The position numbers were made by a program, and so were the translations under genes. The notes beneath the pieces were generated by a model. That model saw nothing but the letters and a program-made list of their open reading frames with translations, was not told the DNA's origin and made no database searches. From Escherichia coli (GTDB lineage Bacteria > Pseudomonadota > Gammaproteobacteria > Enterobacterales > Enterobacteriaceae), in NCBI RefSeq assembly GCF_003334335.1, contig NZ_QOWQ01000033.1: 53,508 nucleotides of DNA. One strand, 5' to 3'. Positions 3,731-7,845 of the stretch are shown piece by piece (within the stretch, counting starts at the first letter, position 1; the number at the start of each line of letters is the position of its first letter).

Positions 3731-4390
3731 TTACAGCGGGCTTAAGGTAATTTCTACACGGCGGTTTTGCGCCTTACCTTCTGCGGTGCTGTTGCTGGCG
3801 ATTGGGTTAGCCGGGCCAAGGCCCTGAGTACGGATGCGGCTGGCGTCCACGCCCTGGGTGATCAACGCGCTGGCAACGGAATCCGCACGTTGCTGGGAGA
3901 GACGCATGTTCAGGTCGTGACCACCCGTGCTGTCGGTATAACCAATCACGTTAACCGCCGTTTTCGGATACTCTTTCAGTACCATTGCCACGCCGGTCAG
4001 GGTGTTAGCGCCCGCCGGTTTCAGGGTCGCGCTGCTGCTGTCGAAGGTCACATTGTTCGGCATATTGAGGATAATGTTATCCCCGCTGCGGGTTACGCTA
4101 ACACCAGTGCCGCGCATTTTGTCGCGCAGCTTCGCTTCCTGCACATCCATGTAATAACCAACGCCGCCGCCCAGAGCTGCGCCTGCTGCTGCGCCAATCA
4201 GCGCGCCTTTACCGCGATCTTTCTTCGAAGAAGAGAGCGCACCAATACCCGCGCCCACGAGAGAGCCCAGACCTGCGCCGATAGCAGATTTACCTGCTTC
4301 GCGTTCGCCGGTGTAAGGGTTAGTTGTGCAGCCAGATACCGCCAGAGCGCCACTCACTACGGCGGCAATAAGATAAACACGTTTCTTCAT
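3731..4390 (-). CDS. yiaD: OmpA-family peptidoglycan-associated outer membrane lipoprotein YiaD
   Basis: Signal peptide with lipobox (LAVSGC), Gly/Ala-rich linker, C-terminal OmpA-like domain (NRRVEITL). Confidence 0.92.
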   Translation of the reverse strand: MKKRVYLIAAVVSGALAVSGCTTNPYTGEREAGKSAIGAGLGSLVGAGIGALSSSKKDRGKGALIGAAAGAALGGGVGYYMDVQEAKLRDKMRGTGVSVTRSGDNIILNMPNNVTFDSSSATLKPAGANTLTGVAMVLKEYPKTAVNVIGYTDSTGGHDLNMRLSQQRADSVASALITQGVDASRIRTQGLGPANPIASNSTAEGKAQNRRVEITLSPL

Positions 4391-4542
4391 TGTTAATCCT
4401 TAATAACCTTTTTATTCTTTGCCACGGGTTCCGTGGCGGGAGATTATGCCGCGTGAACATGAAGATTATTCCTGGGAATACTCGGAAATTTGTAAGTAAT
4501 ATTTAACTGCTCAATACATCTAACCTTTCAGGAGTCTTCGGT

Positions 4543-6876
4543 TTGGCCAACTCATCCTCACGATATTCCGTTCTGACTGCCGCCCATTGGGGGCCCATGC
4601 TGGTTGAAACCGACGGCGAAACCGTGTTTAGCTCGCGTGGCGCGTTAGCCACAGGAATGGAAAACTCCTTGCAGAGCGCGGTTCGCGACCAGGTTCACAG
4701 CAATACGCGGGTACGATTTCCAATGGTGCGAAAAGGCTTTCTTGCGTCACCGGAAAACCCGCAAGGCATTCGTGGGCAGGATGAATTTGTTCGCGTGAGT
4801 TGGGATGAGGCGCTGGATCTTATTCACCAACAACATAAACGCATTCGTGAGGCTTATGGTCCGGCATCGATTTTTGCTGGTTCCTACGGCTGGCGTTCAA
4901 ACGGCGTGCTGCATAAGGCCTCGACATTATTACAACGCTATATGGCGCTGGCAGGCGGTTATACCGGGCATCTGGGGGATTATTCGACCGGCGCGGCACA
5001 GGCGATCATGCCGTATGTCGTGGGTGGTAGTGAAGTTTATCAACAGCAGACCAGTTGGCCGCTGGTGCTGGAACATAGCGATGTCGTGGTGCTGTGGAGT
5101 GCTAACCCACTCAATACGCTGAAAATTGCGTGGAATGCATCCGATGAGCAGGGGCTTTCTTACTTTTCTGCACTGCGTGACAGCGGGAAAAAGCTGATCT
5201 GCATTGATCCAATGCGATCGGAAACCGTCGATTTCTTTGGCGATAAAATGGAGTGGGTGGCACCGCACATGGGCACCGATGTTGCGCTGATGCTGGGGAT
5301 CGCCCATACGCTGGTGGAAAATGGTTGGCACGACGAAGCGTTTCTGGCGCGTTGCACCACAGGTTATGCCGTCTTCGCCTCTTATTTGCTGGGCGAGAGT
5401 GACGGAATAGCGAAAACCGCCGAATGGGCAGCAGAGATTTGTGGTGTTGGCGCAGCGAAAATCCGCGAGCTGGCGGCTATTTTCCACCAAAATACCACCA
5501 TGCTGATGGCAGGCTGGGGAATGCAGCGCCAACAGTTTGGTGAGCAAAAACACTGGATGATCGTCACGCTGGCAGCAATGTTGGGGCAAATCGGCACACC
5601 CGGCGGCGGTTTTGGTCTTTCTTACCATTTTGCCAATGGTGGTAACCCCACGCGGCGTTCTGCGGTGCTCTCTTCCATGCAGGGCAGCTTGCCGGGTGGC
5701 TGCGATGCGGTGGATAAAATCCCTGTTGCCCGCATTGTTGAAGCACTGGAAAACCCTGGTGGCGCATATCAACACAACGGTATGAACCGACATTTCCCGG
5801 ATATTCGTTTTATCTGGTGGGCGGGCGGTGCCAACTTTACTCATCATCAGGATACCAATCGCCTGATCCGTGCCTGGCAAAAACCGGAGCTGGTGGTGAT
5901 CTCTGAATGCTTCTGGACGGCGGCGGCAAAACACGCGGATATCGTTCTGCCTGCGACTACCTCTTTTGAGCGTAATGATCTCACCATGACCGGTGATTAC
6001 AGTAATCAGCATCTGGTGCCGATGAAGCAAGTGGTGCCGCCACGCTATGAAGCGCGTAATGATTTTGATGTTTTTGCCGAGTTAAGTGAACGCTGGGAGA
6101 AGGGCGGTTATGCACGTTTTACGGAAGGAAAAAGTGAGCTGCAATGGCTGGAAACGTTTTATAACGTTGCCCGACAGCGCGGGGCAAGCCAGCAGGTTGA
6201 ATTGCCGCCATTTGCTGAGTTCTGGCAAGCCAACCAGTTAATTGAGATGCCGGAAAACCCGGACAGCGAGCGGTTTATTCGCTTCGCTGATTTTTGCCGC
6301 GATCCGCTGGCGCATCCGTTAAAAACCGCCAGCGGCAAGATTGAAATCTTCTCACAGCGTATTGCCGATTACGGTTACCCGGATTGCCCTGGGCATCCAA
6401 TGTGGCTGGAGCCGGACGAATGGCAGGGCAATGCCGAACCAGAACAGTTGCAGGTACTTTCTGCCCATCCGGCGCACCGCCTGCACAGCCAGCTGAATTA
6501 CAGTTCTCTGCGCGAATTGTACGCGGTGGCAAATCGTGAGCCTGTCACCATTCATCCTGACGATGCCCAGGAGCGCGGCATACAAGATGGCGATACTGTT
6601 CGGTTGTGGAACGCACGCGGGCAAATTCTTGCCGGAGCGGTCATTAGCGAGGGAATTAAACCTGGCGTGATTTGCATTCACGAAGGGGCATGGCCGGATC
6701 TGGATTTAACCGCTGACGGTATTTGTAAAAACGGCGCAGTGAACGTGCTGACCAAAGATCTCCCCAGCTCGCGGCTGGGGAATGGCTGTGCGGGTAATAC
6801 GGCGCTGGCATGGCTGGAAAAATACAACGGTCCGGAACTGACACTTACAGCGTTTGAACCACCGGCCAGCTCATAA
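4543..6876 (+). CDS. bisC: biotin sulfoxide reductase (molybdopterin oxidoreductase)
   Basis: 777 aa ORF of the molybdopterin DMSO-reductase family; the listed start is a TTG, so the true start is uncertain (in-frame ATGs at about 4597 and about 4657). Confidence 0.9.
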
Positions 6877-7285
6877 TCCATGTGGGTAGTTGGGTTTCAT
6901 CCTGCCATGCGCAATCGACAATGTGAAAACCCTGTGCCTGGTAAAAATTTATCGCCGGTTGATTTTTTTGATAAACCTCCAGCATCAGGTGGGGATGGCG
7001 CTGCTGCACATACTGCATCAGCGCCTTACCAATACCGCGCCTGACGGCCTTCGGTGCGACAAACATCGCTGCCAGAAATCGGCCTTCCATAATGCTGACA
7101 AAACCGAGAAGCTTACCGTCTTCTTCCCAGACCCAGTTTTGCGCGTTGGCAAGATAGGCATCCCGCACCAGCGGAATGCAGTCACGCCAGTAATTCGCTT
7201 TTATAAAGGGATGCCCCCAGGTTGTACTTTCCAGCCACAGTTCGAGGATCGCGGGGAGTTCTGAACGTTGCGCTTCCCGAATCAT
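6845..7285 (-). CDS. yiaC: GNAT family N-acetyltransferase YiaC
   Basis: 146 aa with GNAT acetyl-CoA motif (RRGIGKALM); 3' end overlaps the bisC 3' end convergently. Confidence 0.9.
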
Positions 7286-7845
7286 GGTTTATTTCCCGGA
7301 TAGCAACAGCAGCCAACCACATGATCATTCACCAGCCCACATGCCTGCATAAAGGAGTAACAGATTGTGGTGCCGACAAACTTAAAACCACGTTTTTTCA
7401 GTGCCTTAGATAGGGCGTCGGAGGCGGACGTAGATGTGGGAATTTCGCTCAACGTTGTGGCTTGTGTCACCTGTGGCTGATGATTTACAAACGACCAGAC
7501 AAAGTCGACAAACGGTTCGCCGTTCTGTTCCATTTGCAGGTACGCCCGCGCATTACCAATAATTGCCTGAATTTTCCCTCGATGGCGGATAATCCCGGCG
7601 TCCTGTACCAGTCTTTCGACATCCTCTTCCTGCATTGCTGCGACCTTCACCGGATCGAACTGATGAAAGCAGGCGCGATAGTTTTCGCGTTTTTTGAGGA
7701 CGGTGATCCACGATAATCCAGCCTGCTGCCCTTCAAGGCAGATCATTTCGAACAGTTTTTTACTGTCAGTTTCAGGCACGCCCCACTCATTATCATGGTA
7801 GGCAATATAAAGCGGGTCCTGACTCACCCAGCCGCAACGTTCCAT
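7282..7845 (-). CDS. tag: DNA-3-methyladenine glycosylase I (187 aa)
   Basis: MERCGWVSQDPLYIAYHDNEWGVPETDSKKLFE... with C-terminal zinc-site Cys/His; ATG at 7845; the longer ORF to 8082 is an upstream extension. Confidence 0.93.
   Translation of the reverse strand: MERCGWVSQDPLYIAYHDNEWGVPETDSKKLFEMICLEGQQAGLSWITVLKKRENYRACFHQFDPVKVAAMQEEDVERLVQDAGIIRHRGKIQAIIGNARAYLQMEQNGEPFVDFVWSFVNHQPQVTQATTLSEIPTSTSASDALSKALKKRGFKFVGTTICYSFMQACGLVNDHVVGCCCYPGNKP

Follow-up and report, generated by a model that had tools for sequence, protein, structure and literature searches.

The window analyzed here, a stretch of 53,508 nucleotides of an Escherichia coli contig (NZ_QOWQ01000033.1, RefSeq assembly GCF_003334335.1), contains the genes bisC and yiaC in tail-to-tail orientation, with tag located directly upstream of yiaC. 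The following features are found at the gene junction:

4543..6876, + strand: bisC coding sequence, biotin sulfoxide reductase, 777 amino acids (RefSeq, NCBIfam, Pfam)
6845..7285, - strand: yiaC coding sequence, GNAT N-acetyltransferase, 146 amino acids (RefSeq, NCBIfam, Pfam, AF2)
7282..7845, - strand: tag coding sequence, 3-methyladenine DNA glycosylase I (transferred RefSeq annotation)
6845..6876, both strands: dual-coding segment of bisC and yiaC, 32 nt (sequence, ORF list, RefSeq)

The bisC gene is annotated in RefSeq with a TTG start codon (4543-4545) that has an AGGAG Shine-Dalgarno sequence 8 nt upstream; such a non-ATG start fits a weakly translated gene. At its 3' end bisC reads AGC TCA TAA, with the stop codon at positions 6874-6876. 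On the opposite strand, yiaC extends from its ATG at 7285-7283 to a TAA stop codon at 6847-6845 (the reverse complement of 'tta'). The shared segment comprises nine full sense codons plus the stop codon of each gene, corresponding to residues T769-S777 of BisC and M138-L146 of YiaC. On the + strand it encodes, after part of the codon for L768, the BisC residues T A F E P P A S S and the stop, and on the - strand, after part of the codon for I137, the YiaC residues M S W P V V Q T L and the stop. An initial annotation of this DNA had described a 32-bp convergent overlap in which the two genes share, on opposite strands, the DNA of about their last ten codons. The sequence and the ORF list bear this out, and RefSeq gives the same two stops.

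In the RefSeq annotation of E. coli K-12 MG1655, yiaC (3713652..3714092) and bisC (3714061..3716394) have identical gene ends, and the two genes of the window are base-for-base identical to those of this strain. From the ORF list and the MG1655 annotation, the conversion K12 = 3720937 - window was derived for coordinates. The RefSeq annotation of strain ETEC1716 likewise places the ends of both genes as in the window. The DNA around the overlap belongs to the E. coli chromosome; an 801-nt query had matches in 5423 of the 5426 complete E. coli genomes, with identities of up to 100%. The overlap as such is already known, since it is annotated in RefSeq and the gene pair is named in a published list of excludons (see below).

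An antisense run of ten open codons is by itself not improbable by chance. The overlap is judged to be real because both gene ends are confirmed by homologs and are conserved. BisC matches the NCBIfam profile TIGR00509 (bisC_fam) with 1094 bits (cut-off 1017.55), the alignment reaching profile position 768 of 772, and carries the Pfam domains PF00384, PF01568 and PF18364. Homologs of the BisC family were found in the thousands. When these are clustered at 50%, the BisC, TorZ, TorA and DorA representatives without exception have a C-terminus of the form EKYxG...(T/V)AFxPP followed by a short tail; they include a TorZ-like paralog that is encoded beside a cytochrome gene without yiaC nearby. In the structures of TorA and DMSO reductase in the PDB, the chains stop 2-4 residues past the point that aligns with BisC residue 775.

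With 267 bits (cut-off 125), YiaC aligns to positions 1 to 145 of the NCBIfam equivalog NF007853, which has 146 positions, and it contains the Pfam domain PF00583. Hundreds of homologs were found; the orthologs have 146 or 148 amino acids, and YjaB (2kcw), the closest relative with a solved structure, has 147. The AF2 model of YiaC (pLDDT 94.5) was identified by Foldseek as a GNAT fold, with TM scores of 0.81-0.84 to 2kcw and 3fnc, the value for YjaB 2kcw being 0.81. The last beta-strand of the model comprises residues 133-140, and the tail formed by residues 141-146 is a coil of low confidence with a pLDDT below 50 at residues 144-146.

With profiles, structures and orthologs in agreement, the proviso of the initial annotation that the gene ends be as called holds. 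Overlaps of this orientation in databases are sometimes annotation errors: 124 of 178 long convergent overlaps (>60 bp) were judged to be misannotations of 3' ends (Palleja et al. 2008, PMC2478687), and one could suspect that here, too, one stop is wrong or one gene ends earlier, so that no true overlap exists. However, 32 bp falls below the length class in which artefacts dominate, both proteins are full length when compared to curated profiles and to solved or predicted structures, and purifying selection is detected on both frames inside the overlap (see below). Furthermore, a 52-nt segment is present at 95% identity or more in 5418 of 5426 complete E. coli genomes and both stops are found in these genomes as well as in 17 of 17 loci analyzed across genera, which argues against a sequencing error or an alternative stop in one of the genes. 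We therefore regard an annotation or sequencing artefact as extremely improbable. Of the E. coli strains deviating in this segment two were inspected, and both differences are located just outside the 32 nt.

The conservation of the overlap was assessed in 17 loci consisting of the window, five loci of other Escherichia species or clades, nine loci of other genera (Salmonella, Enterobacter, Kosakonia, Citrobacter, Pseudescherichia, Lelliottia, Phytobacter, Franconibacter and Kluyvera) and two metagenomic contigs. The five Escherichia loci were obtained by scanning contigs with strict, exact YiaC peptide patterns, and the wider taxa were reached via protein matches and the contigs encoding them. 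All 17 loci, representing at least 10 named genera, share the gene order yhjX-yhjY-tag-yiaC-bisC and an overlap of either 32 or 38 nt with both stop codons in place. The 32-nt form goes along with a YiaC of 146 amino acids and the 38-nt form with a YiaC of 148. The switch between both forms is a single base, the third position of the codon for BisC Leu768, where all variants are synonymous in BisC. With CTT in bisC, the stop codon of yiaC is TAA and with CTC it is TGA, whereas a CTG reads as TCA (Ser) on the yiaC strand and lengthens YiaC by two codons. A silent change in the Leu768 codon of bisC hence alters the length of the YiaC protein.

In the overlap, the third position of yiaC codons lies opposite the second position of bisC codons and vice versa, and the first positions are paired with each other. 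As a result of this phase, no change is silent in both genes except for a few at first positions. The substitution pattern in the 17 loci is as follows:

Overlap (32 nt): mean pairwise difference 0.138; invariant third positions 9/11 for yiaC and 5/11 for bisC
yiaC alone: mean pairwise difference 0.310; invariant yiaC third positions 9/136
bisC alone (adjacent 300 nt): mean pairwise difference 0.240; invariant bisC third positions 4/100

A diversity as low as that of the overlap is found in none of 378 windows of 32 nt in yiaC and in one of 269 in bisC. The excess of invariant third positions in the overlap gave Fisher p-values of 3e-8 for yiaC and 4e-4 for bisC, which are indicative only as the tests assume independence of the sites and of 17 related sequences and cover just 32 sites. 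Beyond the 32 nt, variation at third positions is free (about 0.50). Starting with YiaC codon 141, all variable columns are second positions of yiaC and third positions of bisC; the YiaC tail thus drifts via changes that are silent in BisC, and the difference between the E. coli tail PVVQTL and the consensus QADQTP is made up of changes of precisely this kind. By contrast, no change occurs at the four-fold degenerate sites of BisC that face the YiaC residues M138, W140, Q144 and T145. This pattern indicates that purifying selection acts on both reading frames within the overlap. The sequence conservation of the segment is fully accounted for by this double coding constraint, without the need for a function at the RNA level. 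bisC and yiaC are therefore a convergent overlapping protein-coding pair: both are real genes, each stop lies within the coding sequence of the partner, the arrangement is conserved, and both frames are under selection.

Within the shared segment, the very last residues of each protein, which are themselves under little constraint, are encoded opposite a constrained element of the partner. The T-A-F-x-P-P motif of the BisC family faces the six-residue YiaC tail predicted as a low-confidence coil by AF2, and the end of the last strand of the YiaC GNAT fold (I-M-x-W) faces the last three residues and the stop codon of BisC. Because the constrained elements face the tails of the partner in this way, the 32 nt are under purifying selection in two frames and evolve more slowly than their flanks.

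As there is no intergenic DNA, there is no terminator between bisC and yiaC, in line with the initial annotation. A scan of positions 6300-7500 for consensus terminators gave no site on the + strand and none inside the overlap; on the - strand, two terminator-like sites were detected, as compared to 1.5 expected by chance. Around the junction, the RNA of neither strand folded better than shuffled sequences did (z-scores -0.6 and +1.0), and Rfam covariance models gave no match at E <= 1 between positions 4300 and 8200. By scan and folds, the gene junction hence lacks a bidirectional intrinsic terminator with a GC-rich hairpin and an A-tract/U-tract. Since both intergenic DNA and such a hairpin are missing, both mRNAs must run into the partner gene.

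Published RNA data for MG1655 agree with this geometry. The pair yiaC-bisC is one of 165 convergent excludons that were detected in 50% or more of 58 MG1655 RNA-seq samples (ExcludonFinder 2025, PMC12288877, Table 1). In addition, Adams et al. 2021 (PMC7815308, supplementary file 2) report a Rho termination region at MG1655 position 3714344 on the + strand, antisense to bisC. The number of reads upstream and downstream of this position was 90 and 23 without bicyclomycin (BCM) and 60 and 112 in its presence (Rho score 7.3, p 5.5e-14; PMC7815308). After coordinate conversion, the site corresponds to position 6593 on the - strand of the window, 252 nt past the yiaC stop, a coarse coordinate as it originates from 800-nt comparison windows (PMC7815308). 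These two data sets support the view that the transcripts of both convergent units overlap in vivo, as had been proposed from the sequence. For the region between the stop codon of yiaC and the Rho site, as well as for one of the sites from the terminator scan, two further features were defined:

6593..6844, - strand: proposed 3' part of the tag-yiaC transcript that is untranslated and runs antisense to bisC (Rho peak from PMC7815308 and base composition)
6760..6782, - strand: candidate terminator-like hairpin (consensus scan; 9 bp with 6 G-C pairs, tail AUCUUUGGUC)

The RNA of the 6593..6844 segment is rich in C and poor in G (C/G 1.1-1.7), as expected for a Rho loading region. The transcript concerned is probably that of a tag-yiaC unit, since tag and the start of yiaC have 4 nt in common (ATGA, 7282-7285), which suggests a single transcription unit running into bisC. 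For the bisC strand, neither a mapped transcript end nor a Rho entry was found in the tables of Adams 2021. The RNA downstream of the bisC stop is C-rich from about +100 to +320, and it may reasonably be assumed that bisC transcripts end by Rho as well. The TERMITe supplements contain nothing on bisC or yiaC.

The candidate hairpin at 6760-6782 would offer another way to end the tag-yiaC transcript. If termination occurred mainly here, within bisC and followed by AUCUUUGGUC, the transcripts would overlap by about 95 nt and Rho would play a secondary role. The hairpin is located 63 nt downstream of the yiaC stop within the bisC codons for D-L-P-S-S-R-L-G-N. It was picked up by the consensus scan, is formed in the MFE as well as the centroid fold and is kept in most genera, and in the Kosakonia/Phytobacter group one pair is preserved by a double change from C-G to G-C, located at synonymous sites. 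However, its U-tract is poor, the number of sites on this strand is close to the chance expectation given above, and the z-score of the fold is -0.6. The arms (CCCCAGC/GCUGGGG) encode the conserved BisC residues P-S and L-G. In an alignment of 15 loci, 91.5% of the cells are paired and four of the nine pairs never vary; covariation is weak, as the double change is the sole compensatory pair, probably reflects a single event, and two taxa break this pair. Furthermore, no curated Term-seq 3' end lies between MG1655 3710464 and 3717247 in Adams et al. (PMC7815308), and the Rho-dependent drop occurs further downstream. The hairpin could be a weak terminator inside the gene or simply a consequence of coding conservation, and we consider it rather unlikely that it is the main end of the tag-yiaC transcript.

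Antisense interference between bisC and yiaC, as raised in the initial annotation, is possible in principle, and nothing in the sequence requires it. In a functional excludon, tag-yiaC and bisC would repress each other by collision of RNA polymerases or by RNase III cleavage of the duplex, so that either unit would go down when the other is induced, and the overlap would be kept for this purpose. This view could draw on the listing of the pair in the MG1655 excludome, on the antisense read-through, which reaches about 250 nt into bisC until Rho intervenes, and on the presence of the arrangement at every locus of our set. The listing, however, carries no information on an effect because overlapping coding sequences lead to it automatically once both genes are transcribed, and our literature search retrieved no study testing interference between bisC and yiaC. 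The substitution pattern is explained in full by the protein-coding constraint on two frames, and the free variation of third positions outside the 32 nt gives no sign of an extended RNA duplex under conservation. Moreover, the low read counts in the Rho region (90 and 23 per 800 nt) suggest weak expression. Taken together, we regard a mutual repression that maintains the overlap as unlikely. The more specific idea that the overlap and the Rho-limited antisense read-through form a selected cis-acting switch, by which tag-yiaC would tune BisC or the reverse and the 6760-6782 hairpin would set the reach of the antisense RNA, appears very unlikely to us. If interference were demonstrated, it would add one tested case to the 165 predicted E. 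coli excludons.

We therefore favor as very probable that bisC and yiaC form a genuine and ancient tail-to-tail overlap of two real genes, which is a passive product of tight packing and not a dedicated regulatory device. The gene ends, the conservation and the dual constraint are shown by the present analysis, the overlap of the transcripts and the Rho termination on the yiaC strand come from published work, and the passive origin is what we infer. According to this explanation, the tag-yiaC transcript would run on untranslated as a C-rich RNA for about 250 nt antisense to bisC until it is stopped by Rho. The bisC transcript must extend over 32 nt or more at the 3' end of yiaC, and it is probably terminated by Rho, too. 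Transcriptional interference or duplex cleavage, if any, would be a side effect, and the overlap would be maintained since both proteins need the shared codons. It has to be noted that an overlap would persist over such long times, too, had selection favored the arrangement as such for a regulatory role; conservation fits an overlap that is hard to undo and one that is useful equally well.

Convergent overlaps are common. E. coli has 75 convergent overlapping pairs (Huvet & Stumpf 2014, PMC4161906), real overlaps are tolerated in the convergent orientation of genes in particular (Palleja et al., PMC2478687), and conserved convergent pairs of prokaryotes were described by Rogozin et al. 2002, as cited in PMC2478687. 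Like these, bisC and yiaC are real genes whose stops lie within the coding sequence of the partner, and their overlap is short, conserved and reduced in divergence by double coding. The usual origin of such overlaps is the loss of a stop codon followed by extension of the 3' end. This origin fits poorly here: as BisC and YiaC end where their families end, with no sign of an extension in either protein, we rejected stop-loss extension as the source of the overlap. Two gene ends of normal length were probably joined in an ancestor of these Enterobacteriaceae. Apart from this, nothing essential distinguishes the pair from the other conserved convergent overlaps.

With convergent excludons the pair shares, besides its entry in the MG1655 list, two convergent units with overlapping transcripts (PMC12288877); the defining outcome of excludons is mutually exclusive expression through interference or RNase III, and yiaC-bisC resembles them in the overlap of its transcripts. 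Classical excludons overlap by long UTRs, whereas the mandatory overlap of yiaC and bisC consists of coding sequence, to which a Rho-limited read-through of about 250 nt is added. The yiaC strand resembles other cases of Rho-terminated antisense read-through (PMC7815308) in that a bicyclomycin-sensitive drop follows a C-rich, G-poor stretch that begins at the yiaC stop. In this data set, only the event on the yiaC strand is documented, and no equivalent entry for the bisC strand was found (PMC7815308).

Bidirectional intrinsic terminators are another solution for convergent gene ends with little or no spacer, and reportedly they are shared by convergent genes in the SEnd-seq work of Ju et al. 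2019. bisC and yiaC also have convergent ends without a spacer, but a symmetric GC-rich hairpin with A/U tracts is present neither in nor beside the overlap; this solution is not used here.

The 32 nt provide a clean, small example of double coding constraint, with the silent sites of each gene frozen by its partner. In practical terms, when bisC or yiaC is deleted or recoded, the terminal 32 nt of the partner have to be kept intact. Beyond such bookkeeping, the overlap is of little importance, and the constraint pattern as well as the stop toggle are tidy details and not a new kind of phenomenon. A deletion that leaves the partner intact is found in the complete genome of E. coli BE104 (NZ_CP040643.1), where most of bisC, equivalent to about 4700-6836 of the window, is missing. 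The deletion ends at window position 6837, 8 nt beyond the yiaC stop, so that yiaC is intact, and the remaining 51 codons of bisC are annotated as a pseudogene. BE104 is probably an engineered strain; its record is without host or source.

Long open reading frames are also present on the antisense strands of bisC (4930-6030, - strand, 366 codons without stop) and of yiaD (3767-4396, + strand, 209 codons without stop). They probably reflect codon bias in genes of balanced G+C content, which commonly gives rise to such reading frames.

The upstream junction of yiaC is variable, too, with short or longer overlaps on the same strand. In E. coli, Tag has 187 amino acids and tag and yiaC overlap by 4 nt, a form also found in Franconibacter. 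In the gene-caller output for most other genera, Tag has 193 amino acids (192 in two loci) and the tag-yiaC overlap comprises 20 or 23 nt. Some assemblies contain YiaC calls of 190-202 amino acids that are extended upstream into tag, and one protein of 190 amino acids combines the Pfam domain of Tag with a 97% match to YiaC over half of its length. These longer calls appear to result either from a different choice of start codon or from frameshift fusions where tag and yiaC meet.
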